A stretch of 64,000 nucleotides of DNA from an uncultured bacterium. Lineage in GTDB: Bacteria > Actinomycetota > Acidimicrobiia > Spongiisociales > UBA5794. The notes below the pieces were generated by a model that was not told the origin of the DNA, ran no database searches, and worked only from the letters and a program-made list of their open reading frames with translations. Positions 1 through 32,313 of the stretch are shown here, piece by piece; position 1 is the stretch's first letter; each line of letters begins with the position of its first letter. The position numbers and the translations under genes were made by a program. The stretch lies in NCBI GenBank assembly GCA_963844835.1, contig CAWJPT010000003.1, positions 17,543 through 81,542 of the forward strand. The letters run 5' to 3'.

Positions 1-562
1 GCACCCTCTCGACATATGGGGCAAACGGCTGGTTGGAGAGGCTGTGGTCATCTTTGATCATGTCGATGCCACCCAGTGCCAGATCAAAAGCCTCGGCGGC
101 GAGACGCTCTGACGAGAGGCCCATCGGCTTGAGGGCAGTGGCCAGCAGAGGGCGCTCCGGTGCATCGAACAGCCGACGCAGACCGGAGATGCCAAACCGA
201 GGCCCCTGGAATCGCGCCAGCAGCGACGGCGGGAGGGTGAAATCGACCAGCCGGATCCCGGGGAGCAGGGCACTGTTGCCCCACAGCACATTCATCAGCT
301 GGGGAAGCTCGAATCCCGTTGTCTCGACCGCGTATGTGACAACCGCACGCGCTCGTGCTTCCCCGACCGGCTCGACAGACTCAACCCGACCAACGATGGA
401 TCGCTGAATGTCATCGTCGGGAACGAGATCGGCGGGAAACTCGATTGTCTGCTCGACGCGTAGCGCATCGGCTCTGGCTCCCGCCTCGGCAACATCGCCG
501 AAGAAGTCGTAAACCGCCTCGATGCGGTCGCCGCTGACTTCGAGGCTCGTGGGCTCGAGCAT
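1..562 (-). CDS. RuBisCO-like protein (form IV RLP), N-terminal ~187 codons; gene runs off the window start
   Basis: Not in the ORF track because it is open at the window edge. My translation from ATG 562..560 reads MLEPTSLEVSGDRIEAVYDFF...GPRFGISGLRRLFDAPERPLLATALKPMGLSSERLAAEAFDLALGGIDMIKDDHSLSNQPFAPYVERV, with no in-frame stop down to position 1. It matches the RuBisCO large-chain block RPLLG..KPKLGLS...GG.D..KDDE..NSQPF, but KPK is KPM and KDDE is KDDH. ATGA start/stop overlap with the upstream transketolase gene. Confidence 0.8.
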   Translation of the reverse strand, partial: MLEPTSLEVSGDRIEAVYDFFGDVAEAGARADALRVEQTIEFPADLVPDDDIQRSIVGRVESVEPVGEARARAVVTYAVETTGFELPQLMNVLWGNSALLPGIRLVDFTLPPSLLARFQGPRFGISGLRRLFDAPERPLLATALKPMGLSSERLAAEAFDLALGGIDMIKDDHSLSNQPFAPYVERV

Positions 563-1569
563 CAGAGGGCCTCGGCCTTCGCAAGGCTGTGCACCGCCTC
601 GATCCTGACCGCTTCCAGATCGGATTCGGTGACGCCGGTCGAGCGGCCGAGTAGCTCTTCGATGCCGCCGATCAGCGCTGGGGCGTCGAGACCGTACTCT
701 CTCATCAAGAACTGCCTGCTGGCACCGTGGGCGTATGTGTCCTCGAGTCCGAGCCGGACCAATCGCTTCCCGACGGCGTTTTCCGCCATGACCTCGGCAA
801 CGGCAGACCCGAGCCCACCGACGATGGTGTGGTTCTCCAGTGTGACCACACCGTGCTTGGCTCGTTTGATCGACTCGAGGATGAGCGGATCACGGAAAGG
901 CTTGTGCGTCGACACATGGATGTGGGTCATCCCCACCCCAGCCCCCGCAAGCGGGGCCGCAGCCCGTATTGCCTCCTCAGTCGTTATCCCTGAAGTGAAC
1001 ACCGTCACATCGTCGCCCTCGCTCAGCACCCGTACCCGGTCGAGCTGCATCGGCTCGTCCTTTGGGAACAGTCTTGGTACCTCGCCGCGCAGCATCCTGA
1101 TATAGACGGGACCGTCGACGGCGTGGGCAACGTCGAGGACACTCTCGACCTCGGTGGCGTCGCCCGTCTCCAGGACGGTCATGTTCGGTGTTGCCCGCAG
1201 GATCGAGATGTCCTCGATGGCCTGGTGGGTGACGCCGCCTGGTGTCGTGATGCCGGGCAAGAAGCCGACGAGCCGCACCGGGAGGTTCGGATATGCGATC
1301 GACATCGCCAGCTGATCGTAGGGGCGGCGATAGATGAACACGGCGAAGGTGTGAATCCACGGCTCGTAGCCCTCGCGAGCGAGACCGGCGGCAAAGCCCA
1401 TCATGTTCTGTTCCGCCATCTTCATCGGGAAGAACCGGTCGGGATAGGTGTCGCGCCAGTTGCCTACCTCGCTCGAGTTGGTGAGATCGGCGGTGAGCAC
1501 CACAACCTCGGGCTTGTCTGCGCTCCAGTCGATGAAGTTCTGGACGTGCGGCCGTTTCACGATCTCCAT
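562..1569 (-). CDS. Transketolase, C-terminal (pyrimidine-binding/C-terminal domain) subunit of a split transketolase
   Basis: 335-aa ORF. Typical split-TK B subunit features: ...VVLTADL..S, GIAEQNM-like MAEQNMMGFAAGLA, THIHVSTHKP. Lies 1 nt after the N-terminal subunit gene. Confidence 0.85.
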   Translation of the reverse strand: MEIVKRPHVQNFIDWSADKPEVVVLTADLTNSSEVGNWRDTYPDRFFPMKMAEQNMMGFAAGLAREGYEPWIHTFAVFIYRRPYDQLAMSIAYPNLPVRLVGFLPGITTPGGVTHQAIEDISILRATPNMTVLETGDATEVESVLDVAHAVDGPVYIRMLRGEVPRLFPKDEPMQLDRVRVLSEGDDVTVFTSGITTEEAIRAAAPLAGAGVGMTHIHVSTHKPFRDPLILESIKRAKHGVVTLENHTIVGGLGSAVAEVMAENAVGKRLVRLGLEDTYAHGASRQFLMREYGLDAPALIGGIEELLGRSTGVTESDLEAVRIEAVHSLAKAEAL

Positions 1570-1570
1570 G

Positions 1571-2470
1571 TCAACTCACCATCTCTTCGTAAACCGCCTC
1601 GTACTGGGCCCTCTCTTCGGGCGAAGTGAATCGCAGGTAGTGCAGCAAGGGGGCACGCTCCCCGAACAGCGGTAGCCCGCGCACCGGGTCGGTGCGGGCG
1701 ATGACGAAGTGCGGCTTGCCGGTATTCATGGTCATGGCTTCGTCGAGGGTGTCGAGCTCGTGGCCGTTGCTCTCGACCGCACTGGCACCGAAGGCGCGGA
1801 TCCGGATCGTCAGGGGATCAGCGGTCTCCACTTCGTCGAGGCATCCGTCACACTGTTGCCCGTTGGCATCGACGATGACACGGAGGTTGTCCAACCCGAA
1901 GCGAGCAATCTGCTCGACCGCTTCCCACGTCTGTCCTTCCTGGAACTCACCATCGGACATCATCACCCAGACCTTGCCCGTGTCGCCGCGGACCTTCCTG
2001 GCGAGGGCGATGCCCCCTGCCTGGCTGAGCGCCTGGGCGAGTGAGCCGGTGGTCGTCTCGACGCCGGGAGAGTGCTCCGCACCGATCATCTCGACGGTGC
2101 TCCCGTCCTCGTTGAAGTGATCCAGCCCGGTCTCGGCAAGCCTGCCCACTTCGATGAGGGTGGCATAGAGCACGAGGGCATAGTGGGCTGGGGAAAAGAT
2201 GAACCGGTCGTACTCGGGCCCTTTCGGGCCGTTGTAGTCGGCGCCTGTGAAGAACGGGACACCGGGGCCGGGCACACCGATGAACTTTCGTGGCTCCAGC
2301 GGAGCCTGGCTCGGGCCGAGGTTCATCACCCGCGAATACAACATGGCGAACATCTCGGCTGACGAACAGGCCTGGCTCATGTAGCCGCCGTTGTTCTTCA
2401 GCACATGCTCGAGCACGCGCCTGCGAATCCCGTCGGCAACCGCCTGGGTGCTTTCCTTCCAATCGCTCAA
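1571..2470 (-). CDS. Transketolase, N-terminal thiamine-diphosphate-binding subunit
   Basis: 299-aa ORF with a TPP-binding GDG-type block (VWVMMSDGEFQEGQTWEA) and GSLAQALSQAGG. Paired with the C-terminal subunit gene. Confidence 0.85.
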   Translation of the reverse strand: MSDWKESTQAVADGIRRRVLEHVLKNNGGYMSQACSSAEMFAMLYSRVMNLGPSQAPLEPRKFIGVPGPGVPFFTGADYNGPKGPEYDRFIFSPAHYALVLYATLIEVGRLAETGLDHFNEDGSTVEMIGAEHSPGVETTTGSLAQALSQAGGIALARKVRGDTGKVWVMMSDGEFQEGQTWEAVEQIARFGLDNLRVIVDANGQQCDGCLDEVETADPLTIRIRAFGASAVESNGHELDTLDEAMTMNTGKPHFVIARTDPVRGLPLFGERAPLLHYLRFTSPEERAQYEAVYEEMVS

Positions 2471-2472
2471 AA

Positions 2473-3549
2473 TCAGCCTCCTTGCTCGAACGCGGCGCGG
2501 ATCGACTGCTCATACGGCGGCTTGAGCACCCCGGCATCGGTGATGATTGCGGTGATCAGCTCGTGGGGGGTCACATCGAATGCCGGATTCCATACCGCGA
2601 TGTCGTCGGGGGCGGTCGGTTCGGACCGCCACCTGGTCATCTCGTGCGCCGGTCTCAGCTCGATCTCTATCTCGGCACCGCTGGCAATCGAGGTATCGAA
2701 CGTCGAAAGCGGGGCAGCAACGTAGAACGGAATCCCGGCGTACTGTGCGTTGACGGCGTGGGTGAAGGTCCCGATCTTGTTTGCGGTATCGCCATTGGCC
2801 GCAATCCGGTCGGCGCCAACGATCACGGCCTCGACCTTCCTCTGCGCCATCGCCGTCGAGCTGGCCCCGTCGGGCATCAGCGTCACGTCGATGCCTGCGT
2901 CGTGCAACTCCCATGTGGTCAGACGGGCTCCCTGGAGGAGCGGACGTGTCTCCGATGAGAGCACGTGGACGGGAAGACCGGCGGCAGCCTTGGCATAGAT
3001 GACCCCGAGTGCGGTCCCCCAGCCTGCCGTAGCAAGCCGGCCGGTGTTGCAGTGGGTCATGATTCTCGTGATCCCGGACAGCTCCTCCATCCCGTACAGC
3101 CCCATCCGGGTGCACGCGTCGCGATCCTCGGCAATGATCGCCTCGGCCTCCTCGAGCGCCAGCATCCGCACCTCGGCGGCGTCACCGCCCGATGAGGCGG
3201 CATCACGAACCCGCTTCACGGCCCAACTCAAGTTGACCGCGGTGGGTCGAGCGTTGCCGATGGTCTCGACGAGCTCGTTCAGGGCCGCCACCGCATCAGC
3301 AGCGGACTCCGGATTGCGCTCATCAAGACCGACAACCATCCCGAGCGCGCCACAAGACCCGATCGCCGGTGCGCCGCGCACAGCAAGCCGGTAGATGACG
3401 TCGACCACCTCGTCAACCGACCGGAGCTGGAGGACCTCCAGCTCCGAAGGCAGCTTGGTCTGGTCGATGATCTCGATGTGATCGTCGACCCATGCCACCG
3501 ATGGCTGCAGCTTGGCGAGAAAGTCGTCGGCGAGCGATGTATCCAACAT
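2473..3549 (-). CDS. mtnA: S-methyl-5-thioribose-1-phosphate isomerase (eIF-2B alpha/beta/delta family)
   Basis: 358-aa ORF. Family hallmarks: RGAPAIG, RPTAVNLSWAV, MTHCNTGRLAT, GADRIAANGDTANKIGT, FDVTPHELITAIITDAG. ATGA overlap with the mtnK stop. Confidence 0.85.
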   Translation of the reverse strand: MLDTSLADDFLAKLQPSVAWVDDHIEIIDQTKLPSELEVLQLRSVDEVVDVIYRLAVRGAPAIGSCGALGMVVGLDERNPESAADAVAALNELVETIGNARPTAVNLSWAVKRVRDAASSGGDAAEVRMLALEEAEAIIAEDRDACTRMGLYGMEELSGITRIMTHCNTGRLATAGWGTALGVIYAKAAAGLPVHVLSSETRPLLQGARLTTWELHDAGIDVTLMPDGASSTAMAQRKVEAVIVGADRIAANGDTANKIGTFTHAVNAQYAGIPFYVAAPLSTFDTSIASGAEIEIELRPAHEMTRWRSEPTAPDDIAVWNPAFDVTPHELITAIITDAGVLKPPYEQSIRAAFEQGG

Positions 3550-4781: not shown

Positions 4782-5063
4782 CTACTTCTCTGGGTCGAGC
4801 GCATGAGCGCCCAGCGCGGTTACCTCGATGTCCATCCAGGGGAACAACGGCAGCGAGCTGAGGATCTCATGGAGCTCCTCCGTGCTGTCGACCCGGTAGA
4901 GGGCGTAAACCGCCCGCCGTCCCGGGATTCTCCATATGCGGCGCAGCTTGCCCGCATCGACCAACTCCTGACCACGAACCTTCTCGGCCGCCTTGACTGC
5001 AGCCAGCCGGTCCGGGTCCATGTCCGGGGATATGTTCTGCTCGATGCGGGCAAGGAATTCCAC
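4782..5063 (-). CDS. Muconolactone delta-isomerase family protein (dimeric alpha+beta barrel), function in this context unknown
   Basis: 93-aa ORF. DMDPDRLAAVKAAEK...LRRIWRIPG...LHEILSSLPLFPWMDIEVTAL aligns by eye with CatC (DMDP..LKADEK..LWRIAG..LH..L..LPLFPYMDIEV). Confidence 0.75.
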   Translation of the reverse strand: MEFLARIEQNISPDMDPDRLAAVKAAEKVRGQELVDAGKLRRIWRIPGRRAVYALYRVDSTEELHEILSSLPLFPWMDIEVTALGAHALDPEK

Positions 5064-5065
5064 GC

Positions 5066-5860
5066 TCAGACTCCTACTGGTTGCGCGGCCACCATGGTGT
5101 TGGCCTCATCAGCCGACGCACCGTCGTGGATCACCGCTCGCAGACCCTTGGCGACACCGACCGGGTCATAGTGTTGCCAGATGTTGCGGCCGAGATTGAC
5201 ACCGATGGCGCCACGATCGATACCGTCACGTACGAACGAGAACACCTCGCGGGCGTCGTCGGTCTTCGGACCGCCTGCGATGACCACCGGTGCCGGACAA
5301 GACGAGGTCACCTTCTCGAAATCCTCGCACCAGTAGGTCTTGACGACACGAGCACCCAGCTCGGCAGCGATCCGGCAGCTCAATGCCAGGTAGCGAGCAT
5401 CTCTCTTCTCGAGCTCTTTGCCGACGGCGGTGACTGCCATCACCGGGATACCGTACCGCTCATACAGATTCACGGCGCGGGCCAAGTTGCCGAGCGACTC
5501 GCGCTCATATTCCGAGCCTACGAAAATCGAAATTCCGACCGCCGAGGCACCCATCCTGATGGCTTCCTCGGGGTCGACGACCAACTGCTCGTTCTCCAGT
5601 GAGGGGCCGACGATGCTGGTGCCGCCGCTGATCCTGAGGATCACATTTGGCTTGGTCTCCGGAGGTATCGCATTCCGCAGCACACCCCTGGTGACAAAGA
5701 GGGCGTCTGCAATCGGAGTGAGGTCCTTCACGGTCTCGCCCGGACGCTCCAGCATGCGTGTGGGTCCCAAGAAGTATCCGTGGTCGATGGCCAGGAAGAA
5801 CGCGTGACCCGTCTCGGGTGAGATGAGATCCGCCATCCTGCGCTCCATACCCCAGTCCAT
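5066..5860 (-). CDS. LsrF-like class I aldolase/thiolase (DhnA/FbaB-DeoC family)
   Basis: 264-aa ORF. The blocks DWGMERR...LAIDHGYFLGPT..LERP, TRGVLRNAIPP, VGSEYERES, MAVTAVGKE, RIAAELGARVVKTYW, CPAPVVIAGGPK and GVNLGRNIWQ parallel E. coli LsrF block for block, from my memory of that sequence. This includes the Schiff-base Lys context (I/V)KTY. Confidence 0.8.
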   Translation of the reverse strand: MDWGMERRMADLISPETGHAFFLAIDHGYFLGPTRMLERPGETVKDLTPIADALFVTRGVLRNAIPPETKPNVILRISGGTSIVGPSLENEQLVVDPEEAIRMGASAVGISIFVGSEYERESLGNLARAVNLYERYGIPVMAVTAVGKELEKRDARYLALSCRIAAELGARVVKTYWCEDFEKVTSSCPAPVVIAGGPKTDDAREVFSFVRDGIDRGAIGVNLGRNIWQHYDPVGVAKGLRAVIHDGASADEANTMVAAQPVGV

Positions 5861-5928
5861 GTTCCATCCTCCAATCCCCTGTAATCAGGGGCTAGCTGTC
5901 TTGTTGATCTTGTGTGGCTCGTGGTCCG

Positions 5929-7897
5929 TCAGATAACGCGCTCGTTGCCACCGTCGATCGGGATGTGGGCACCGGTAATCGGGTAGAACACATCGCCGAG
6001 CATGGTGGCAACGACCTCGCCGACGGCAGCACTCGTTATTTCGACACCCATGAGGTTGCGTCGCTTGTACTCCTCGATCGTCATCCCGTAACGGGAGGCC
6101 CGCTCGGCCAGCAGCTCAGGGGTCCACAACGCCGTATCGAAGACGGCGTCGGGATGGACGGAGTTGACCCGGATCCCATCGCCCGCCCACTCGAGGGCCG
6201 CAACCCGCGCAATCTGGTTGGCCGCGGTCTTCGACGCCGAGTATGCGCTCGCACCGGGACCGGGGGCACGCACGTTCTTGGATCCGATGACCGCAACACG
6301 ACCGCCGCCCGGCGCTTGCAGGAGGAGAGGGTGTATCAGCGAGAGCAGCTGAATCAGCCCGTCGACATTGACGGACATGGCTCTGCGCCAGGCGGATGGG
6401 TCGTGTGCGGAGATCGGGGAAGACTCGGGGAAGAGGCCTGCAGCCGCAACCAGCATGTCGACGCCGCCGAATCGCTCGACGCCGACATCGAGAGCCGTCG
6501 CGGTCTGCTCGACCGACGAGAGGTCACACGGGACACCGAGGAAGGCAGGGTCGTCTGTCATCTCACTGACGGCCGGGTTGATGTCGAGCCCGATGACGGC
6601 AGCCCCTCTGGCCAGCAGGGCAAGGGCACAGCCGCGACCGATTCCCGAGTTTGCGCCCGTCACCACGGCGACCTCGCCGGTGAACTCACCTTCGTGGGGG
6701 ACGAGATCGAGCTTGAGCTGCTCCAATTCCCAGTACTCGAAGTCGAACATGTCCTGTGAAGAGAGCGCCGAGTACCCACCGAGACCTTCGGATTGCTCGA
6801 TGACGTCGATGATCTGCAGGTAGATGTCGCCTGCCGCCTGCTCGGCGTCGATGTTGGGCCCCGCCGTGACCATCCCGAACTCAGGGTCGAGGATCACCCG
6901 GGGCGCCGGATCCAGCATGCGCAAGGGTCTCCCCGCTACGTGCGACTCGAAATAGGTGAGGTAGTCCTTGGCGTATGTCCCCACGTCCCGGCCGAGCAGC
7001 GGGACCCGCTTGGTCCAAATCACGTGATCGGGCGTGGCAACGCCTTGTTGGCTGACCACACCGAGATCCGGTCGTTGCGAGAACGCCCAGCTGACGTCGT
7101 CACGATGACGGCGGACGATGCACGGCCTCCCGGCCGCATCCGAGACATCGCGACGTAACCTGGCGAGTTCGACACGGTTGATTTCCGGCGGCCCGCCGGC
7201 CGGGGTGGGTGATTTGCCACCGACCGAATGAGCCGCCAGGTAAGCCTCTGCGGCCGAAATGAGATCGACCATACGTTCATAGGCGACGTGCGGCGTCTCC
7301 CCGAAGGTGAAGATGCCGTGGTTCATCAGCACGACGGCCTCTGTCTCGTCTGTCGCCGATTCGGCGTAGGCGCGCGCTGCCGCGGTGGCGACTCTGAAGC
7401 CGGACATCGCATACGGAACCACGACGGCCCTTTCACCGTATAGCTCCCTTACCCGGTCTTCACCGTTGACGGTGTTTGAGATTGCCAGCAGGGCGTTTGG
7501 GTGAGCATGCTGCACCGCCGTTTCCGGGATGACGGCGTGGAGGATCGCTTCGACCGAGGGGTTGGCTGCGGTCACGTCGAGCCGGGCGCCCTTCAGCTCG
7601 TTGAGCATCGCGGTGTCGGATAGGTCGTCGAGCTCAACGAGTCGTCGCACCCGATTGAGATCGAGCGGGGAGAACCCTTCGACCTCGATGTCGGCGAGGT
7701 CCCATCCGCTCGCCTTCACATAGAGCACGTCGATCGGCTCTCCGTAGAGATTCCGCTCGGAGACCTTCACCGACGTGTTGCCACCACCGTGGAGCACCAG
7801 GGTTCGTATCGGCCCCCAGGAGCTTCGAGGCGTATACGCACTCCTCGAGCAGGCCTTCACAGGCCGCTGCCTGCTCCTCGTTCCACCGGTTCTGCAT
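5929..7897 (-). CDS. Bifunctional class II aldolase/adducin-domain + short-chain dehydrogenase (rhamnulose-1-phosphate aldolase/SDR type); frame broken near 7800-7815
   Basis: ORF 5929..7860 carries LVLHGGGNTSVKV (aldolase domain) and a C-terminal SDR (VAVVTGANSGIGRG, YSASKTA). The true N-terminus MQNRWNEEQAAACEGLLEECVYASKLLGAD lies in ORF 7634..7975 (ATG at 7897). The two frames join at a C/G run around 7805. Confidence 0.75.
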
Positions 7898-7925: not shown

Positions 7926-9042
7926 CTATTCGGTTTCGGCGAACTCGGGATACATCGCCAGAATCGACTCTTCACTTGCCTCGCTGATGCCGCGCTCGGT
8001 GATGATCCCGGTCACGTAGCGGCGCGGCGTCACGTCGAAGCCGAAGTTGGCGGCACCGACGCCTGGAGCAGCGGTCTGCGGCTCCACCTGTCTGCCGTCG
8101 AGCCACCCGGTGGTCTTGGTGACCTCGTGGCCTCCACGCTCCTCGATAGGGATCTCGGCTACGCCGTCGTGGAGCTTCGGATCGAGCGTGCTCGACGGCA
8201 GTGCCGCATAGAAAGGAACGCCGTTCTCCTTGGCGACGACGGCCTTCATGTAGGTGCCGATCTTGTTGGCAACGTCACCGCTGATCGTCGTGCGGTCGCT
8301 ACCGACGATGACCATGTCCACCATGCCGTGCTGGAGCAGGTGACCGGCGGCGTTGTCGGCGATGACGGTGAGCGGGATGCCTGCCTGATTGAGCTCCCAA
8401 GCGGTCAACCTGGCGCCCTGGTTGCGTGGGCGCGTCTCCGATACGTAGACGTGGATCGGGATACCCTCGGCGTGGGCCGCGTACATCGGGGCGGTCGCAG
8501 TGCCGTGCTCGACGAACGCCAACCAGCCGGCATTGCAGTGAGTCATGATGTTGACCGTCTCACCCTTGCGCCGGTAGATGTCCTCGATGACGCCGAGCCC
8601 GTGCTGTCCGATCGCGGCACAGTAGGCGACGTCCTCGTCGGCAATGGTTTCCGCCAGGGCTTTCGCTCTGGAGATCCGCTCGGCAGCATCTTCGATGCCG
8701 AGGATCTCTTTGAGCTGCCGTTGCACTGCCCAGGTGAGGTTGACCGCGGTGGGCCGACTCGCCTCCAGCTCGGTACCGGCGGCTCGCAGCGAGGCGTCGG
8801 CGTCGGCAGCGCCCATTCCGCCGCGTGGCCAGCGCGGCGAGGTACATGCCGTACCCGGCGGACACTCCGATGCACCCGGCACCGCGCACCACCATGTCGG
8901 CGATGACAGTGGTCATCTCCCCCGAGGTGCGGATGGATACTTCTTGATATTCGAAAGGCAGAAGCCGCTGGTCGATACAGACGACGGAGGTTGGGTCGTC
9001 CCGGTCGATCCAGATGGTCCTGTTCGCCGGCGTCTTGCTCAT
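7926..9042 (-). CDS. Second eIF-2B-family sugar-phosphate isomerase (MtnA / 5-deoxyribose-1-P isomerase / R15P-isomerase-like paralog); frame broken near 8820-8840
   Basis: The N-terminus MSKTPANRTIWIDRDDPTSVVCIDQRLLPFEYQEVSIRT...VVRGAGCIGVSAGYGMYLAAL is in ORF 8560..9042. The remainder (RPTAVNLTWAV, MTHCNAGWLA, GSDRTTISGDVANKIGT, FDVTPRRYVTGIITERG) is in ORF 7926..8882. ATGA overlap with the permease stop. Confidence 0.75.
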
Positions 9043-10103
9043 AGCGGAACCGCCGCCTGGAATCGTTGCTTGCGCCGGGAGAGGGTGAACGAGAAGATCA
9101 GCGCGACCAGTAGCACGAAGCCTTTCACGACGTCTTGCCAGTAGTACTGGAAGTTCATCATCGTGGTGCCGGTGAGCAGGATGCCGATGAGGATGGCACC
9201 GAGCGACGTGCCGAACGCGTTCGGCTTCCCCACCCCGAGCACCGAGGTACCAACCAGAGCCACCGCCACGGCATCGAGCAGCAGGGAGTTACCTGCCGAG
9301 ATGTCGCCCTGGCCGATCCGGGACGCCAGGATCAAACCGGCAATGGATGCGTAGATGCCGGAGAGCATGTAGGCGAATGCCTGGTAGCGGCCGACCCTGG
9401 CACCGGCAAGGCGGGCCGCTTCGGGGTTGGTGCCGATGGCGTACATGACCCGGCCCCACTTGGTCCGGGAGAGCAGGAACCAGGTGAAGATGGCCAGTAC
9501 CGCAAAGATGATCACCGGGTACGGGACCGGTCCGATCGAGCCACGGTTGATCTCGAGAAACCCGGGCGTGAACTTGCCGGGCGCTACCGTGCCGTCGCGG
9601 AGGATCAAACCGGACGACACCGACTGTCCGTCCACCGGCACGAGTTTCAGGCCCTGCACCAGGAACATCGTTGCCAGCGTGGCGAGCAAGTCGGGGATCT
9701 TGAGCACGACGATCAGAGTTGCGTTGAAGGCTCCGATGATGGCGCCTGCGGCGATGACGGCGGCCACGGCCACCGAGCCCTGCTGGGCGTAGATCACCAT
9801 CGTCATTGCAGCCACAGTGACCGACATGCCTGCGGTCGCTCCCACAGAGAGGTCGAGTCCACCGACCACCATGGTGACGGTTACTCCCAGCCCGGCTACG
9901 GCTACCACCGAGATGTACTTCAACATCGTGAACATCGTCGAAGAAGTCCGGAAAGCAGGGATCGTCGCCATGAAGTACACGAGGAAGATCACCGTGACGG
10001 CGATGAAGCCGTACTTGACGAGCAAGTCGCGCGCGTCTGCCCGGGGCCTCGGTTGCGCCTCTCCCTTCTTCTCGTTTTTCGGCGTCATGGTTGTTGTGGC
10101 CAC
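9039..10103 (-). CDS. Sugar ABC transporter permease (RbsC/branched monosaccharide type)
   Basis: 354-aa highly hydrophobic ORF of the multi-TM RbsC/AraH type. Directly abuts the ATPase stop (10104). Confidence 0.85.
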   Translation of the reverse strand: MATTTMTPKNEKKGEAQPRPRADARDLLVKYGFIAVTVIFLVYFMATIPAFRTSSTMFTMLKYISVVAVAGLGVTVTMVVGGLDLSVGATAGMSVTVAAMTMVIYAQQGSVAVAAVIAAGAIIGAFNATLIVVLKIPDLLATLATMFLVQGLKLVPVDGQSVSSGLILRDGTVAPGKFTPGFLEINRGSIGPVPYPVIIFAVLAIFTWFLLSRTKWGRVMYAIGTNPEAARLAGARVGRYQAFAYMLSGIYASIAGLILASRIGQGDISAGNSLLLDAVAVALVGTSVLGVGKPNAFGTSLGAILIGILLTGTTMMNFQYYWQDVVKGFVLLVALIFSFTLSRRKQRFQAAVPL

Positions 10104-11610
10104 TTACTCAACCTCCGAGAGTCGTTGCAGGATCTGGTCCCTGCTGGTCTCCGACAGATATGTATCAAGCCGGAGATTTCCGTCCGCGAGCACAACGACC
10201 CGGTCGGAAACTTCCATGATTTCTTCCAAGTCCGTCGACATGACGATGACCGCAGAGCCGGTCTCCGCAACCTCCCTGGCCTTCTCTGCCAGGTCGTGAC
10301 GAGCACCGACGTCGACACCCTGGAACGGTTCGTTCAGCACCATCACCGTCGGGTGTTTACGCAACCATCGACCGACGACGACCTTCTGCTGGTTGCCACC
10401 CGAGAGGGACATGACCGACTCGGCCTCCGACTGGGCAACAACACCGAAATCGTCGATGACGGCTCGCCCTACCTTCGCCTCGGCCATCGGGTTGAGGACA
10501 CCAAAGCGGGAGATCTCGTTGAGGAATGGGAATGTCGAGATCATGGAGACGGACCACTTCTTGATGAGGGTGCCTTCGGCGCGATCCTCCGGAACCATGT
10601 AGACCTCGGATGCGATAGCGTCGGCAGGCGCCTTGGGAGCGAATGGCTTGCCCTTCAGGATCATCTCGCCACCCTCGAAGGGATCAGCGCCGAAGATGCC
10701 TCGGGCCAGCTGACTCCCACCGGACCCGAGCAGCCCGAAGACACCGGTTACCTCTCCGGCTCGCAGGGAAAAATCAAATGGTGTGGATTTGGGGAGCAGC
10801 TGCACACCTTTGAGCAGCAGCACTTCTTCGGTGCCCCGCAGTTCGACCGCACGATTGGTCCGGTCTGCCTCGTCGACGTCGAGCATCACGTGGAGTGCGG
10901 TCTCCCAATCAAATGGGCGGTCATGATCGCTGAGAATGACCCCGTCACGCAGCACGAGCAGACGATCTGCGATCTTGTCGATCTCCGCAATGCGGTGGGA
11001 AACGTAGAAGATGGCGACCCCGTCGTCGCGGAGTCGGCGGATGACGCCGAAAAGACGGTTCGGCCTCGGTCTCGGAGAGCGCCGACGTCGGCTCGTCGAG
11101 GATGAGCAGCCGGGGCTCGTGTACGAGGGCCCTGGCGAGGAGAAGCAACTGCTGATCGGCGATCGGCAGCTCGTACACATCGCTCCGCAACAGCTCGTCC
11201 GACCAGCCGAGATCGAGGACGGCCGCCACTTCCCTCGCTCTTGGCATGAGGGATCGCAGCGATGCCGCTCTCGGGACCTGATTGTTGACGATCCCCTCGA
11301 AGAGGAGATTCTCGGCGACGCTGAGACCGGGGACGACCCCGTCGGCGATCTTCTGGTGGACAGCCTCGATGCCATGGGCGTGCGCCGTGGTTGGATGATC
11401 GATGTATACGGGGACACCACCAATGATGACGGTGCCCCCATATCCGTTGTATACGCCCGAGAGAACTTTGATGAGTGTCGACTTGCCGGCGCCGTTGGCA
11501 CCGAGCATGGCGGTCACCTTCCCCGGCTCGATGGCAAGGTCGATCCCTTTCAGGACCTCATTGGGCCCAAAGGCCATCGTGATGCCCTCCATCCGGACTG
11601 CGGGTTCCAT
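10104..11610 (-). CDS. Sugar ABC transporter ATP-binding protein with two nucleotide-binding domains (RbsA/LsrA type); frame broken near 11060
   Basis: NBD1 (GANGAGKST, LLILDEPTSAL) is in ORF 10945..11691, starting at ATG 11610 (MEPAVRMEGI). The rest of NBD1 plus NBD2 (FYVSHRIAEI, LSGGNQQK, LNEPFQGVD) is in ORF 10104..11501. Confidence 0.8.
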
Positions 11611-12827
11611 CAAACGCTCCTTCTCAGGCTCTCGAATCGCGTCACGAGGAGGAGGTGGCCGTCGGGAGGGGGGATCCCGACGGCCACCCACAGATCTCCT
11701 AGAACTGTGATCGACGGGATCCAGTCGGCGGACTGGACGTCGGCCAGGTTCAGTGCAGGCAGAGCCGCCCGCAGGTCAACCATGTTCGTGATGTTGTTGT
11801 CGAGCAGGAACTGCTGGGTGACGAGCACACCAGGGAAATCAACCGAGCGTGGGCCCTGCTGCCCGGCGAGCTCGAGCGCCATGGTCCGCATCACGGCTGC
11901 ACCGATCGCGTTCGGGTCGGTGGTCGCCGTAGCCTTCCACGGGCTGCCATCGGCAGTCATGACCTCGATGTCGGCATTCGAGATGTCGATGCCGTAGGCC
12001 CAGATGTCCGCGGCGAGACCGTTGTCGTTGATCGCCGACACTGTGCCCTTGGTCAACTCGTCGTACGGAGCGAAGATCGCCCTGACATCCGGGTTTGCCT
12101 TGAGCGCGGCATCGACCAGCTGTGCGTTGTCGGTGGCGACTGCGTTGGTGAACTCACCGACGAAGAAGACCTGGTCCCAGTTGTTGTCTGCCACGTACTG
12201 CTGCCAGACCACATGCCTGCGATCGAGCGGGGCGATACCGAGCACGTTGACATAGCCAACCCTCTGATCCGGGCCGATGTCGGCGAGCATCTGTCCGAGG
12301 GACAGGTCGGCGAGGCTGGCGTCGGACTGCTGGGTCTGAACTGCGTTCGGGGCACACTCTGCGATCGCGATGTCATAGATGACAACGGGGATGCCTGCAT
12401 TGAGCGCATCGTTGATCAGCGGGCACATGGTATCGGTCTGGCCGTGATCGACGACGATGCCGTCGACACCTGAGCCGATGGCCGTCTCCATGTCGGTGGC
12501 CTGCTTGGCATTGTCGGCCTGAGCGTCGTACCAGGTGTACTTGATACCGATTGCGTCAGCCTGCTGCTTGGCACCGTTGGTCCACTGCTGGAAGTAGTCG
12601 CCAGCACCGCTGTTCTGCACAACGGCAATGTTCACCTCACCGTCAAAGGGTGCAGGCATCGTGACACCGGCTGCGGTGGTCTCCGTCGTCCCCTGATCAG
12701 CTGCGGTCGTCGTTGTCGTGGTCTCTTCGGTGCTCTGGGAACACGCCGCGGTCAATAGGGCGAAGGCAACGAGGATGACCCCGAGCCAGATACCCCTCCG
12801 CGGGCTTGTCCTCATACTCTTACTCAT
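11610..12827 (-). CDS. Sugar ABC transporter substrate-binding lipoprotein (periplasmic-binding-protein type I)
   Basis: Start chosen at MSKSMRTSPRRGIWLGVILVAFALLTAAC (lipobox LTAAC), followed by a Thr-rich linker and a PBP fold. The last ~35 codons read through a perfect hairpin and look non-native, so the true stop may be an out-of-frame TAG near 11700. Confidence 0.75.
   Translation of the reverse strand: MSKSMRTSPRRGIWLGVILVAFALLTAACSQSTEETTTTTTAADQGTTETTAAGVTMPAPFDGEVNIAVVQNSGAGDYFQQWTNGAKQQADAIGIKYTWYDAQADNAKQATDMETAIGSGVDGIVVDHGQTDTMCPLINDALNAGIPVVIYDIAIAECAPNAVQTQQSDASLADLSLGQMLADIGPDQRVGYVNVLGIAPLDRRHVVWQQYVADNNWDQVFFVGEFTNAVATDNAQLVDAALKANPDVRAIFAPYDELTKGTVSAINDNGLAADIWAYGIDISNADIEVMTADGSPWKATATTDPNAIGAAVMRTMALELAGQQGPRSVDFPGVLVTQQFLLDNNITNMVDLRAALPALNLADVQSADWIPSITVLGDLWVAVGIPPPDGHLLLVTRFESLRRSV
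11654..11688 (-). promoter_or_regulatory. Intercistronic 14-bp perfect stem-loop between the SBP and ATPase genes
   Basis: GGTGGCCGTCGGGA (11654-11667) and TCCCGACGGCCACC (11675-11688) around a 7-nt G-rich loop. This is the typical position for SBP-mRNA stabilising or attenuating hairpins in ABC importer operons. Confidence 0.5.
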
Positions 12828-12890
12828 CTTGCTCCTTCCGGCTAATGGCGTCTCACTCCTGTGGCTGGGTTTGCCAACCGCACGCCACTT

Positions 12891-12924
12891 GCACAAATGT
12901 GCACCAATGCACACAAGTGCACAA
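12891..12924 (-). promoter_or_regulatory. Operator-like array of four T(T/G)GTGCA repeats at 8-10 bp phasing upstream of the importer/catabolic operon
   Basis: The minus strand reads ATTGTGCAC TTGTGTGCA TTGGTGCAC ATTTGTGCAAG, 64-97 nt upstream of the SBP start. It is locally AT-rich in a GC-rich genome. Confidence 0.35.
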
Positions 12925-13036
12925 TACATTGCGCGGGTAGTGCTGGCAACTCAAAGTATCGCGATTGGCTGATATGACGGCAACGGCCGCGGGGCATAGT
13001 TGGTGATCGAACAATGGCCGATATGGCCACTTCGAT

Positions 13037-21112: not shown

Positions 21113-23518
21113 CTAGCCCGCTTCCGCCATGGTCCGCTCGTGGTAGCTCTCGTCGAGGGTCTGGTAGAGCTCCTCCTCCTGAGCGAAGTGGAGCCGCAGG
21201 ATTGCGTCGAGGCTGTACATCACCCGCCGCACATCGACAAGGGTATTGCCGAGATCATCGGTACTCGTCGCATCCTCAACCATGTGGTGCAGCGTGCCCG
21301 CAAGCTTGAAGATCTCCCCGTGGGTGAGGCTCATTGCCGCCATCGGATCCTCACCTCCGATCAGCTCGGACAGCACGGGGTAGATTTCCCGGTCGTCCTG
21401 CCGCTCGTGTGGAAGCACCTCGTCCTGGACGAATCGATCGATGCGTTGCAGCTCGGCGATTGCATCGATGCTGTCGAGATTGCCGAGGCGGTCGGCCAGC
21501 CGGCCGATGTCCTCGAGCTTCGGTATCAATTCGTCGTGCTCGGCCTTGAGCCGGGCGGACAATTCGCTGGGAAGCCGGACCTGGGTCCCCCATCCTGATC
21601 GATCGCGCAACGCACGAAGGGCACTGAGGATGGCAAGCACATCGATTGCCTCCTGGAGCATTGCCCCTGCCACCGGCCCGAAGAGGCCGAACGTGGCTGC
21701 GACCATCGCCAACAGTGCCAGACCCATCCCGAGAAATGCGCTCTGCGAGGCAATGCTGCGGGATCGCTGGGCCAGGCGCATTGCCACTGCAAGCCGGTCG
21801 AGGCGATCAACCACCAAGACGATGTCGGCCGCTTCCGACGAGGAAGTGGCGCCTCGCGCCCCCATTGCCACCCCGACGTCGGCTGCAGCAAGAGCTGGAG
21901 CGTCGTTGACCCCATCTCCGACCATGATCGTGACGCCATCGGCGGTGGCGGCGCGCACCGCCTCGAGCTTCTCGGCGGGAGTGCACTGTGCCAGCACCCG
22001 GTCGGCGCCGATTGCCGCTCCCACCGATTCGGCCACGACCGGATGATCGCCGGTCGCCATCACCACAGATCTGATCCCGCGTTGCCGGAGCAACCGGATG
22101 GTGCGCGGCGTATCAGCCCTGACCTCGTCCACCAGTCGGAACGCCCCGACCACGGCTCCATCGACGGCAATCGAGATGTCGATACTCGGTGACCGAGCCG
22201 CCCGGGCCTGATAGGCCTCGGCGGCAGCCGGAAGCTCGCGTCCCTGGGCAACAAATGATGCGCTCCCCAATGCAACATCGTGACCGGCAACCGTACCCAC
22301 GATCCCACCGCCGGCCGTTTCCTCGACATCGCCCGGTAGATCGAGTTCGATGCCCTGGCCTCGCGCCGCCTGGACTAGCGCAGTAGCGAGGATGTGATTG
22401 GACATCTGATCGAGTGACGCTCCCAGCCAGAGCAAGTCGCGCTCGTCGAAATCCTCCCCGAACGCGGTGACTGCGGCCACCGAAGCCTCGCCAACCGTCA
22501 GGGTCCCCGTCTTGTCGATGATGAGGATCTCCGCGTCCGCCAGACGCTCGAGGACGCCCCCACCCTTGATGACAACACCACGGTTCGCGGCTCGCGAGAC
22601 CCCCGAGACAATGGCGATCGGTACCGCGAGCAGCAACGGGCATGGGGTGGCGACCACCAGCACCGAGAGCCCGCGCACTGGATCTCCAGATGTCGCCCAT
22701 GCCACGGCCGCGATCGCAAGTGCTAACGGGACGAACCCGAATGCATACCGATCGGCCAGCCGTGAAATCGGGGCCTTGGCGGACTGGGCTTCCGCAACGA
22801 GTTTGACGATGCCCGCATAGGTGGAATCCGCCGCCCCCTGAAGCGCCACGACGTGGAAACTGTCACCGGCGTTGACGGTACCGCTGGCGACATGGTCACC
22901 AGGGGGATGCACCACCGGTGCCACCTCACCGGTGAGCGAGGATTCGTCGAGAACCGCGCTGCCAACGGTCACCAGCCCATCGACTGGAACCACCTCGCCA
23001 GCCTTCACGATGAGCTGATCTCCCTGCCGCACCTCATCGACGCCCACCGTCGTTATCTCGTCACCGACCACAATGTGGGCCTCGCGCGGAGCTCGCTGCA
23101 GCAGAGCAGTGAGCTCGTGCTTTGCCCTTGCCGCGGCATAGGAATCGAGCGCATCGCCCGTAGCGAGCATCAGCCCGATGATTGCCGCCGCCAGATACTC
23201 ACCGAGCACAATCGAGCCGCCAACGGCAAGGACGGCAATGATATCGAGGCCCCACTCCCGCCGCCGGATGCTGCCAACGAAACCGACTACCAGCGGGACT
23301 GCAGCAACCACGCCGGTGAGTGCCCAGGCGACATCGGCGACTGCCGACTCATCGACGATGGCGGCGACGATGCCGACCAGCAGCCCGCCTGCCGTTGTCG
23401 CCACGAGCGCGACAGTTTTGCGGTCGAGTCTCACCTGACCACCTTTCCACGATTCTCGAAGGGTCGTAGCGTCAGTGTCCGGGAAGACGGAGGGCGACGG
23501 GAGGGGCGATCGCCTCAT
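21113..23518 (-). CDS. P1B-5-type heavy-metal P-type ATPase with C-terminal hemerythrin (HHE) domain
   Basis: 801-aa ORF. DKTGTLT, GDGVNDAPAL, a TM TPC motif (VVATPCPLLL) and QEAID in the last TM. No N-terminal HMA domain. The C-terminal ~150 aa are His/Glu-rich and hemerythrin-like (LKAEHDEL, HERQDDREIYP, THGEIF, HFAQEEE). Confidence 0.85.
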   Translation of the reverse strand: MRRSPLPSPSVFPDTDATTLRESWKGGQVRLDRKTVALVATTAGGLLVGIVAAIVDESAVADVAWALTGVVAAVPLVVGFVGSIRRREWGLDIIAVLAVGGSIVLGEYLAAAIIGLMLATGDALDSYAAARAKHELTALLQRAPREAHIVVGDEITTVGVDEVRQGDQLIVKAGEVVPVDGLVTVGSAVLDESSLTGEVAPVVHPPGDHVASGTVNAGDSFHVVALQGAADSTYAGIVKLVAEAQSAKAPISRLADRYAFGFVPLALAIAAVAWATSGDPVRGLSVLVVATPCPLLLAVPIAIVSGVSRAANRGVVIKGGGVLERLADAEILIIDKTGTLTVGEASVAAVTAFGEDFDERDLLWLGASLDQMSNHILATALVQAARGQGIELDLPGDVEETAGGGIVGTVAGHDVALGSASFVAQGRELPAAAEAYQARAARSPSIDISIAVDGAVVGAFRLVDEVRADTPRTIRLLRQRGIRSVVMATGDHPVVAESVGAAIGADRVLAQCTPAEKLEAVRAATADGVTIMVGDGVNDAPALAAADVGVAMGARGATSSSEAADIVLVVDRLDRLAVAMRLAQRSRSIASQSAFLGMGLALLAMVAATFGLFGPVAGAMLQEAIDVLAILSALRALRDRSGWGTQVRLPSELSARLKAEHDELIPKLEDIGRLADRLGNLDSIDAIAELQRIDRFVQDEVLPHERQDDREIYPVLSELIGGEDPMAAMSLTHGEIFKLAGTLHHMVEDATSTDDLGNTLVDVRRVMYSLDAILRLHFAQEEELYQTLDESYHERTMAEAG

Positions 23519-31395: not shown

Positions 31396-32313
31396 TCTTT
31401 CTCGCCCAGAACATCGACAGTGCCAGGCTCAACTTCAACCAGGGCAGCCTGCTGATCCTCAACATCCTCATCGGGTTGATGATGCTCGGCATGGCCCTCG
31501 ACCTCGACGTCGAGGACTTCCGCCGCTTGCTGCGCAAGCCCAAGCCGCCCGCGATCGGGCTCATCGCCCAGTTCATCTTCCTGCCCGCGCTCACGTTCGT
31601 GCTCACCCTGGTGCTCGAACATTCGCCCTTCGATCGCACTCGGGATGATCCTGGTGGCGTCATGCCCCGGCGGGAACCTGTCCAACGTGATGACCTATCT
31701 GGCCGGCGGGAATGCACCGCTCTCCGTCGGCATGACCGCGGTCTCGACGGCGGCGGCGATCGTGATGACTCCGCTCAATCTGTCCATCTGGGGCTCTCTC
31801 AACAAGAACACCGAGCCGATCCTGCGCTCGGTGTCGCTCAGCCCGCTCGATCTGTTCATGACGATCTTCGTGATCCTCGGCATCCCCCTCGTCGTCGGCA
31901 TGCTCATCGCCCGCCGCTACCCCGGGCTCGCCGAGAAGATAAGAGGTCCGTTCAAGACCTTCTCGGTGGTTGTCTTCATGGGGTTCGTCGCCGTCGCACT
32001 GGCGAATAACTGGAAGTACTTCGTCGAGTACATCGGGCTGGTCGTCTTCGTCGTCCTGCTTCACAACGCCGTCGCTTTCTTGATCGGCAACGTGGCGGGC
32101 CGTCTCGCCAGACTGGAGCCGCGAGACATACGCGCCGTCACCATCGAGGTTGGCCTACAGAACTCGGCGCTGGCACTGATCCTGGTGTTCAACTTCTTCG
32201 ACGGGCTCGGTGGCATGGCGATCATTGCCGCCTGGTGGGGCATCTGGCACATCATCGCCGGACTGATCGTCGCCGGGATCTGGTCACGCCGTCCACTCGA
32301 AGTCGCTAACGGC
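31392..32313 (+). CDS. Bile acid:sodium symporter (BASS/SBF) family transporter; frame broken near 31620 and no in-frame stop before the next gene
   Basis: MIFLAQNIDSARLNFNQGSLLILNILIGLMMLGMAL... is in ORF 30855... It continues as ILVASCPGGNLSNVMTYLAGGN...EVGLQNSALALIL in ORF 31645... Confidence 0.65.

Follow-up and report, generated by a model that had tools for sequence, protein, structure and literature searches.

Results

An LsrF homolog within a methylthioribose salvage operon

The window, i.e., the whole 64,000-nucleotide stretch of DNA analyzed here, derives from an uncultured bacterium of the Acidimicrobiia and carries at its start an operon in which a homolog of the Escherichia coli thiolase LsrF lies among genes for the salvage of 5-methylthioribose (MTR) and 5-deoxyribose. 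Judging from the sequences of this operon and its relatives, it probably encodes a new form of 5-deoxyribose/MTR salvage, in which a known enzyme family has a new physiological role. The operon is single and tight, with 12 genes, all on the minus strand, and it continues beyond window base 1. Most of its genes are −4 to +18 nt apart, the exceptions (~28 nt and ~68 nt) lying on either side of the gene for a class II aldolase/short-chain dehydrogenase/reductase (SDR) fusion. The genes are given below from the first to the last of the operon. All positions are window coordinates, and L-numbers denote loci of relatives in other genomes or metagenomes used for comparison.

11610..12929, minus strand: periplasmic sugar-binding protein of the Peripla_BP_4 type; first operon gene, true start probably downstream of 12929
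10104..11634, minus strand: ATP-binding cassette (ABC) sugar transporter ATPase, two ABC_tran domains; frameshift near 11052
9039..10103, minus strand: ABC sugar transporter permease, assigned by synteny (Pfam BPD_transp_2 in the ortholog)
7926..9042, minus strand: MtnA1, second MTR-1-phosphate isomerase paralog, 371 aa in relatives; 360 bits against a cut-off of 271; +1 frameshift near 8822
5929..7897, minus strand: class II aldolase/SDR fusion, 655 aa in relatives; NF006196, 867 bits against a cut-off of 831; +1 frameshift near 7803
5066..5860, minus strand: LsrF homolog of the window-type clade, class I aldolase fold, 264 aa; NF006081, 328.8 bits against a cut-off of 297; Pfam DeoC
4782..5063, minus strand: MI93, 93-aa muconolactone-isomerase-fold protein, 2 nt after lsrF; Pfam MIase PF02426, 105.8 bits
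3549..4763, minus strand: MtnK, 5-methylthioribose/5-deoxyribose kinase, 404 aa; TIGR01767, 400.5 bits against a cut-off of 275
2473..3549, minus strand: MtnA2, aldose-1-phosphate isomerase of the MTR-1-phosphate isomerase family, 358 aa; NF004326, 419 bits against 271; TIGR00512, 413 against 279
1571..2470, minus strand: N-terminal, thiamine diphosphate-binding subunit of a split transketolase (TK-N), 299 aa; Pfam Transketolase_N
562..1569, minus strand: C-terminal subunit of the split transketolase (TK-C), 335 aa; Pfam Transket_pyr and Transketolase_C; best PDB match the split transketolase 6yaj, 211 bits
1..559, minus strand: RuBisCO-like protein (RLP) of the DeepYkr type, N-terminal ~186 codons, the rest lying beyond the window start; assigned from the translation and a full-length ortholog

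MtnK, two MtnA and an Aldolase_II domain with intact PSxE/HxH/NHG motifs constitute the gene set of a dihydroxyacetone phosphate (DHAP) shunt or 5-deoxyribose salvage cluster. The operon holds no separate FucA-like aldolase gene of the Ald2/DrdA kind; its own aldolase is a RhaE-type domain fused to the SDR. The initial annotation, made on three genes at 4782–7897, had their coordinates, their strand and this MTR/5-deoxyribose context right, as the family scores of MtnK and both MtnA above attest. In its account of the cluster, it overlooked the RLP, which is cut by the window start and was not recognizable as a gene there, and gave the transketolase no role; both would form an optional side branch. 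The two MtnA paralogs are ~41% identical. MtnA2 lies beside MtnK, transketolase and RLP, and MtnA1 beside the aldolase/SDR fusion, so there may be one paralog per branch or per substrate.

The best-matching genomes are metagenome-assembled genomes (MAGs) of Acidimicrobiia/Ilumatobacteraceae. Compared with close relatives, the window has single-base insertions in the aldolase/SDR gene near 7803, in MtnA1 near 8822 and in the ABC ATPase near 11052, the first of which puts the initial 31 codons of the fusion in a different frame. In L002–L004 the frames are intact. L001, the nearest relative, is frameshifted in MtnA1 and also in TK-N, where the window is not. Therefore, the three frameshifts are probably long-read assembly errors and not gene decay. 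An Rfam scan of the whole window gave no riboswitch or other RNA family. In a promoter/terminator scan the match counts were not above chance, the sole sigma-70-like match lying at 12949–12921.

The window protein belongs to the LsrF branch

The 264-aa protein passes the LsrF equivalog model, and it scores far below the cut-offs of the models for 2-amino-3,7-dideoxy-D-threo-hept-6-ulosonate (ADH) synthase (177 versus 299 and 189 versus 241). By BLAST it is 44% identical to E. coli LsrF, aligned over 254–256 residues. Against solved structures it gave 233 bits with E. coli LsrF (3gkf/3glc/4p2v; residues 1–256), 149 bits with the ADH synthase MJ0400 and 84 bits with the fructose-1,6-bisphosphate (FBP) aldolase of Thermoproteus tenax.

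The comparison of active sites used the positions that the structural study of LsrF points out (PMC2728841). The Schiff-base lysine K203 of LsrF corresponds to K174 of the window protein, D57/H58 to D26/H27, and R254 to R225. The general base D57, the Schiff-base K203 and the phosphate-site residues H58, G226, G227, G253 and R254 are all kept and are invariant across all 80 related loci; the window protein also agrees with LsrF at Y60, F61, T88, R89, R107, T174 and Y205. The catalytic tyrosine of MJ0400 and the FBP aldolase is missing, just as in LsrF. Thus, family models, structure scores and active-site residues place the window protein, as far as sequence can tell, in the LsrF branch and not in the ADH-synthase/FbaB branch. 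The initial annotation had recognized this homology, including the context of the catalytic lysine; a grouping with the ADH-synthase/FbaB enzymes, which would have told against its proposal, is not what the comparison gave.

The agreement with LsrF in thiolase-specific residues, which the initial annotation had singled out for comparison with aldolases, breaks down at one position with a proposed catalytic role. Asp251 of LsrF has been proposed as a catalytic acid/base (PMC2728841). It adjoins the catalytic lysine and is specific to LsrF, the residue being Ala in MJ0400 and in the T. tenax FBP aldolase. In the window protein and all 80 related loci, Asn-Leu (Asn222-Leu223 in the window) stands for Asp251-Met252, Ser for Gln141 and Phe for Tyr143. 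Position 251 with its neighbor reads Asn-Leu in 120/120 window-type proteins, and Asp is found in 119 of 120 enterobacterial-type LsrF (motif GVDMGRN in 118/120, GIDMGRN in one more). The latter set consists of the listed homologs of E. coli LsrF, all ≥81% identical and from Enterobacterales/Pasteurellaceae, and was used for the Asp251 and length statistics only. The LsrF family thus comprises two clades, 44–49% identical to each other. Proteins of the window-type clade have 255–272 aa and those of the E. coli type 291–308 aa; the N-terminal, domain-swapping extension of ~30 residues is absent from the window protein, whose first residue corresponds to residue 32 of LsrF. A HMMER search of a representative library (50% clustering) returned both Asp-Met and Ala-x types among distant representatives, many of the matches being fragments. 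In that search the window clade appears to be subsumed under Asp-Met (E. coli type) representatives, and the matches did not suffice for a phylogeny.

MI93 and other small barrel proteins next to lsrF

The initial annotation gave the 2-nt gap between lsrF and the 93-aa gene correctly and their order wrongly, since on the coding strand lsrF comes first. It also put MI93 into the same general fold class as LsrG, which stands for the broad fold and for nothing closer. The AlphaFold2 model of MI93 (mean predicted local distance difference test score 93.8) matched ClcF/muconolactone isomerase in Foldseek with template modeling (TM) scores of 0.93–0.94. LsrG (2gff) came at rank 28 with a TM score of 0.55 and 9% identity. 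Moreover, Pfam assigns MI93 to MIase and not to ABM, the LsrG domain. On the model, MI93 and LsrG appear to have a broad ferredoxin-like fold in common and to belong to separate families. Against the CatC equivalog TIGR03221, MI93 scored 91.2 bits, below the cut-off of 130.6, and its neighbors are lsrF and mtnK, with no β-ketoadipate context. Glu27 is invariant in MI93; the same residue is mutated in the ClcF E27A substrate complex. A homolog search gave 185 matches; the 120 listed are all ≥73% identical, and those checked share the same cluster type.

A small α+β-barrel gene lies directly 3′ of lsrF in three lineages, each time from a different family, namely LsrG (ABM) in E. coli K-12, where lsrG follows lsrF by 23 nt, the MIase-like MI93, and an EthD protein in L162. 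We take ABM, MIase and EthD to be members of one Pfam clan of dimeric α/β barrels. These placements speak for the small barrel protein as an LsrG analog, as had been proposed; its absence from most LsrF clusters outside Acidimicrobiia speaks against. At L162:7920–11613 the order is aldolase/SDR, cupin_2 (132 aa), LsrF of the E. coli type and an EthD-domain protein (125 aa). The EthD protein holds the LsrG/MI93 position, and the cupin recalls the 1-methylthioxylulose-5-phosphate (MTXu-5-P) methylsulfurylase.

The aldolase/SDR fusion and its characterized relative

That a class II aldolase/SDR fusion precedes lsrF had been noted initially and holds, with the addition that the gene carries a 1-nt frameshift. 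In an alignment of fusion proteins, which was also used for the metagenome scan, the PSxE, HxH and NHG motifs of the aldolase domain are invariant, as are TGxxxGIG, the NAD+-type Asp426 and the N-S-Y-K tetrad of the SDR domain. The fusion scores 387 bits against the RhaEW model TIGR02632, below its cut-off of 568, and falls into subfamily NF006196 instead. It lacks a rhamnose context (RhaA/RhaB/RhaM); its neighbors are MtnA, LsrF and MtnK.

RhaEW, the only characterized relative, is described as a rhamnulose-1-phosphate aldolase plus L-lactaldehyde dehydrogenase (PMC3870299). When NAD+ was left out, neither DHAP nor lactate was released, which its authors read as a requirement of the dehydrogenase domain for aldolase activity (PMC3870299). 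This NAD+ dependence fits equally well with an oxidation that comes before C-C cleavage, and it is unexpected for an independent aldolase step.

LsrF recurs with dehydrogenases and Mtn genes in other genomes

The whole operon is syntenic in the Acidimicrobiia loci L001–L022, with LsrF identities of 74–97%. Full-length relatives have genes for a divergent SorC/DeoR (LsrR-like) regulator and an RbsD pyranase after the RLP. The aldolase/SDR fusion neighbors LsrF in 23/23 Acidimicrobiia loci, L058 included; there the genes are for a MtaD/DadD-like amidohydrolase, an SDR, SorC, MtnA, LsrF and the aldolase/SDR. DhaK/DhaL-type kinases make ketose-1-phosphates. In a second paralogous cluster type, L019 (512–3306) and L022 (6791–12105), the order is SorC, aldolase/SDR, LsrF, MI93, DhaK and DhaL. 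Since these loci carry the trio with DhaK/DhaL, the aldolase/SDR, LsrF and MI93 form a module that different kinases can feed. L019 and L005 come from the same MAG; one genome holds both cluster types.

Outside Acidimicrobiia, a window-type LsrF that shares 64–70% of its residues with that of the window is encoded in 58 loci, which belong to Chloroflexota, Planctomycetia, Nitrospirota, Deltaproteobacteria, Omnitrophota and, in one case, an archaeon (a Methanolliviera MAG). A zinc-dependent dehydrogenase of one orthologous type comes directly after LsrF in 45 of the 58, often with a 4-nt overlap (L023–L080, e.g., L044:4223–6083; L081:8001–9856). The best models for this protein are those of secondary-alcohol enzymes, with threonine 3-dehydrogenase on top, followed by scyllo-inosose, sorbitol, galactitol-1-phosphate and butanediol dehydrogenases. 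A PfkB kinase gene comes after the pair in nine Nitrospirota-type loci. A Planctomycetia/Omnitrophota cluster reads SDR, B12-binding radical S-adenosylmethionine (SAM) protein, amidohydrolase, MtnA-like protein, FucA-like aldolase, NAD-dependent aldehyde dehydrogenase, LsrF and zinc-dependent dehydrogenase.

Radical-SAM genes near LsrF (13 of the 58 loci) were dropped as evidence, this frequency being, by a rough estimate, about chance level in anaerobes. B12-binding or variant radical-SAM genes stand beside LsrF modules in L027, L028, L030, L033, L046, L052, L054, L059, L070 and L119:3928–7764, and the same orthologous radical-SAM family recurs near LsrF in Planctomycetia and Dehalococcoidia.

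In the metagenome scan, aldolase/SDR fusions of 40–54% identity adjoin MtnA in 13 loci, usually without LsrF. At least five clusters, each with its own arrangement, have LsrF beside such a fusion, of the window type in L090 and of the E. coli type in L117, L119, L121 and L162. The latter four have the GVDMGRN motif and the N-terminal extension and share 59–68% of their residues with E. coli LsrF. In L121, mtnP (NF006492, 515 bits versus 437), mtnA (467 versus 271), aldolase/SDR and lsrF make up an operon of four genes, whose LsrF is the one with 68% identity. L162 carries RLP-TKN-TKC, an aldo-keto reductase, an enolase-superfamily gene, MtnA, GntR, aldolase/SDR, cupin_2, LsrF, EthD, a ribokinase-like PfkB and MtnK. 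The LsrF-dehydrogenase partnership predicted in the initial annotation therefore recurs independently, both with the zinc-dependent enzyme and with the aldolase/SDR fusion.

A putative second branch through the RLP and the transketolase

The full-length RLP ortholog at L088:14573–15703 has 376 aa, falls in Pfam RuBisCO_large and has 3QFW as its best PDB match (273 bits), which we take to be R. palustris RLP1 of the DeepYkr clade. The DeepYkr family converts 5-methylthioribulose-1-phosphate (MTRu-1-P) to MTXu-5-P in the methylthioadenosine (MTA)-isoprenoid shunt, which in R. palustris runs in parallel with the DHAP shunt (PMC5893883). The RLP comes after TK-C in 13 related loci. It is translationally coupled to the split transketolase, in the order TKN-TKC-RLP in the window and RLP-TKN-TKC in L162 (L162:101–2577); it always adjoins the transketolase and never LsrF. 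L010 and L015 lack transketolase and RLP. Because of these loci, the two appear, by analogy, to form an optional and separable second branch, parallel to the MTA-isoprenoid shunt and leading to MTXu-5-P or 1-deoxyxylulose-5-phosphate (DXP). As the window-type operon lacks a cupin methylsulfurylase (a cupin_2 gene was found only in L162), one may speculate that the transketolase cleaves the xylulose-5-phosphate-like RLP product, MTXu-5-P or DXP. The pairing of RLP and split transketolase was not found described in a single search made for it in the literature outside subscription journals.

The RLP metal-site motif is KDDH instead of KDDE. The first ~80 residues of TK-N are divergent, and GGY aligns with the SGH motif of human transketolase in a low-confidence alignment. 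Elsewhere in the window, 21113–23518 encodes a P-type ATPase with a hemerythrin domain at its C terminus, and a single open reading frame (ORF) at 31645–33264 joins an SBF transporter part to an NAD-dependent epimerase domain, perhaps through a further frameshift or as a fusion artifact.

Discussion

Proposed oxidation and thiolysis of a deoxy-ketose phosphate

Building on the gene identities, the operon structure, the conserved active sites and the recurrent gene associations observed here, we infer the substrate, an oxidation step, its coupling to CoA and a role for MI93. 5-Deoxyribulose-1-phosphate (5dRu-1-P) is CH2OP-CO-CHOH-CHOH-CH3. As correctly stated in the initial annotation, its oxidation at C4 gives CH2OP-CO-CHOH-CO-CH3, i.e., 3-hydroxy-2,4-pentanedione 5-phosphate (P-HPD), which is the substrate named for LsrF in the E. 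coli K-12 annotation. We give about an even chance to the reading that the operon serves the uptake and catabolism of 5-deoxyribose and/or 5-methylthioribose, with oxidation of the sugar phosphate followed by CoA cleavage.

In such a route, the ABC transporter would import the sugar, MtnK would phosphorylate it at C1 and an MtnA paralog would isomerize the product to the ketose-1-phosphate, 5dRu-1-P or MTRu-1-P; these three steps are proposed because of the family membership of the transporter, MtnK and MtnA. The NAD+-type SDR domain would then oxidize the C4 hydroxyl to give P-HPD or its methylthio analog. MI93, which keeps the catalytic Glu of ClcF, could shift a proton and so supply the keto tautomer or positional isomer required, in the manner of LsrG on phospho-AI-2 (AI-2, autoinducer-2). 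The LsrF-type enzyme would form a Schiff base at the DHAP-side carbonyl and CoA would take the acyl group, yielding DHAP and acetyl-CoA or methylthioacetyl-CoA. The class II aldolase domain could provide an ordinary aldol branch or hydrolyze the same diketone.

The recurrent associations between dehydrogenases, LsrF and Mtn genes lend this oxidative-thiolytic reading independent comparative support. Specifically, oxidation followed by thiolysis is the most economical reading of the L121 operon, because its LsrF is a near-ortholog of the proven P-HPD thiolase, the SDR is its sole dehydrogenase and the MtnA product its sole sugar phosphate.

Several observations weigh against oxidation followed by thiolysis. 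The invariant Asn for Asp251, Ser for Q141 and Phe for Y143 suggest that the chemistry or the substrate may differ from that of E. coli LsrF. The fused aldolase domain looks fully active, and since it keeps PSxE, HxH and NHG, an ordinary aldol branch likely exists too; the characterized relative RhaEW is itself described as an aldolase plus aldehyde dehydrogenase. MtnA plus aldolase/SDR pairs mostly lack LsrF within 8 kb, which makes LsrF look like an add-on to these pairs and not an obligatory step. Besides, MI93 is restricted to one lineage, a small barrel gene is missing from the LsrF clusters of L117, L119 and L121, and most pairs of zinc-dependent dehydrogenase and LsrF sit among housekeeping genes, which give no pointer to the substrate.

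Alternative explanations

The strongest alternative is a DHAP shunt of the ordinary kind, in which the aldolase domain would release DHAP and acetaldehyde or methylthioacetaldehyde and the SDR would then oxidize the aldehyde, as in RhaEW. LsrF would be a redundant class I aldolase of other stereospecificity or an unrelated accessory enzyme, and MI93 would have no defined role. MtnK or MtnP with MtnA and a class II aldolase is an established pathway (PMC6079011; PMC10986504). The intact aldolase residues of the fusion, the description of RhaEW, the common MtnA plus aldolase/SDR pairs without LsrF and the Planctomycetia cluster with its own Aldolase_II and Aldedh genes all agree with it. However, it leaves the repeated, variously arranged co-occurrence of LsrF with fusions and Mtn genes without a reason, it does not explain the tight pairing of LsrF with a polyol-type dehydrogenase, and true aldolases have an acid/base Tyr or Glu that is missing from the LsrF-type active site. 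Furthermore, the L121 mtnP-mtnA operon carries an LsrF 68% identical to the P-HPD thiolase, and the only source of P-HPD there would be the oxidation of 5dRu-1-P. We regard the ordinary shunt as a serious but rather unlikely account of the operon.

Alternatively, LsrF and MI93 could act downstream of the RLP, which would convert 5dRu-1-P to DXP (or MTRu-1-P to MTXu-5-P); the SDR would oxidize C3, MI93 would carry out the LsrG reaction to P-HPD and LsrF would thiolyze it. By our reasoning, C3-oxidized DXP is phospho-AI-2, which would give MI93 exactly the job of LsrG. A DeepYkr RLP is present in the operon, its family isomerizes MTRu-1-P to MTXu-5-P (PMC5893883), and L162 likewise combines RLP, transketolase, LsrF and a small barrel protein. 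Nonetheless, we consider this order of events improbable, because the aldolase/SDR-LsrF(-MI93) set occurs without RLP and transketolase in L010, L015, L019, L022, L058 and L121; moreover, the constant neighbor of the RLP is the transketolase and not LsrF.

Genuine AI-2 processing, i.e., an lsrF ortholog that degrades phospho-AI-2 taken from the environment, is what automatic annotation implies. The NCBIfam LsrF equivalog is passed, relatives are named "P-HPD thiolase" or "AI-2 aldolase" in the sources, and a ribose-type ABC transporter and, in relatives, the SorC/LsrR-like regulator accompany the gene. On the other hand, the genes that flank it are MtnK and MtnA. Neither an LsrK-type (FGGY) kinase nor LsrG/ABM occurs among the operon genes or in 20 further window ORFs scanned against Pfam, and the binding protein has no match to E. 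coli LsrB at E ≤ 1e-3. A tblastn search with an E. coli LsrG query likewise gave no match in the window or any locus, which is a weak negative. The window protein also belongs to a distinct clade, 44–49% identical to the E. coli type, with Asn for Asp251 and without the N-terminal extension. AI-2 processing is therefore a very improbable function of this operon. An ADH synthase or FBP aldolase of the MJ0400/FbaB kind, serving aromatic amino acid biosynthesis or gluconeogenesis, shares the DeoC/LacD superfamily with the window protein and has MJ0400 as the next-best solved relative, but it is scarcely credible in view of the low scores against the ADH-synthase models, the missing catalytic Tyr with its LsrF-like surroundings and the catabolic operon context.

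A possible primary role of the LsrF family

5′-Deoxyadenosine is a by-product of every radical-SAM reaction. [quoted passage not shown] Beaudoin et al. stated that other disposal strategies must exist (PMC6079011). Recent descriptions of the DHAP shunt know only two variants, one with MtnN+MtnK and one with MtnP, in both of which the class II aldolase stands free (PMC6079011; PMC10986504). In our search of the literature outside subscription journals, nothing linked LsrF to methylthioribose, 5-deoxyribose or deoxyadenosine, and no description of the oxidative-thiolytic route was found.

We tentatively suggest, as a possibility that falls well short of an even chance, that the LsrF family serves primarily the salvage of SAM by-products and not quorum-signal degradation. 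A dehydrogenase, the zinc-dependent enzyme in many anaerobes and the aldolase-fused SDR elsewhere, would oxidize 5dRu-1-P or MTRu-1-P, and LsrF would thiolyze the product to DHAP and acyl-CoA. If so, a dehydrogenase and LsrF would recover the C2 unit as acetyl-CoA, plus NADH, with no need for oxygen and no free aldehyde, and radical-SAM waste would have a widespread, oxygen-independent and aldehyde-free means of disposal. It would also account for the many LsrF genes that stand as "orphans" in Dehalococcoidia, anammox Planctomycetia, Nitrospirota and syntrophs, which carry the AI-2 label from annotation alone and are at times also discussed under it (e.g., Sfum_2464). The enterobacterial lsr operon would have borrowed this route, which would give the lsr system a metabolic origin. 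As a corollary, RhaEW-type fusions would oxidize first and then perform a retro-Claisen cleavage, and not an aldol cleavage followed by aldehyde oxidation; the RhaEW mechanism would be worth re-examining.

Comparison with known systems

The window operon resembles the lsr operon of E. coli in its ribose-type ABC importer, the SorC-type regulator (in relatives), the small barrel gene after lsrF and the proposed substrate, P-HPD. LsrF itself is of the same family, with the Schiff-base Lys, Asp57, His58 and phosphate-site residues kept and the aldolase Tyr absent. In contrast to the lsr operon, the window has MtnK and MtnA in place of LsrK and an MIase-fold instead of an ABM barrel, LsrF is only 44% identical, and the source of P-HPD would be a deoxy-ketose phosphate that is dehydrogenated and not phospho-AI-2 that is isomerized.

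With the DHAP shunt (MtnK or MtnP, MtnA and Ald2/DrdA), the operon has in common the first two steps, the ketose-1-phosphate, a class II aldolase domain and DHAP as a product; sugar transporters occur in some DHAP shunt clusters as well (PMC6079011; PMC10986504). It differs in the fusion of its aldolase to the SDR and in the addition of LsrF, the MIase-fold protein, a second MtnA, the split transketolase and the RLP, and acyl-CoA, not a free aldehyde, would be the form in which the C2 (or C3S) fragment is released. The MTA-isoprenoid shunt of R. rubrum and R. palustris (MtnP, MtnA, DeepYkr RLP and cupin) is similar in that the RLP is closest to 3QFW and MtnA supplies its substrate. However, the window operon has no cupin and its RLP is coupled to a split transketolase; L162 has both cupin and transketolase.

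RhaEW (YuxG) shows the same two-domain architecture as the window fusion and is NAD+-dependent, with a deoxy-ketose-1-phosphate as substrate and DHAP as product, whereas the window fusion belongs to another NCBIfam subfamily, has Mtn instead of rha neighbors and is often paired with LsrF. Finally, threonine dehydrogenase and 2-amino-3-ketobutyrate CoA ligase (KBL) offer a mechanistic analogy only. There, too, an NAD+-dependent enzyme of the zinc-dependent dehydrogenase/SDR type oxidizes a CH(OH)-CH3 group and the resulting β-dicarbonyl is cleaved with CoA to acetyl-CoA, and the zinc-dependent partner of window-type LsrF scores best against threonine dehydrogenase models. KBL is pyridoxal phosphate-dependent and unrelated to the Schiff-base-forming triosephosphate isomerase (TIM) barrel of LsrF, and the substrate here would be a sugar phosphate.

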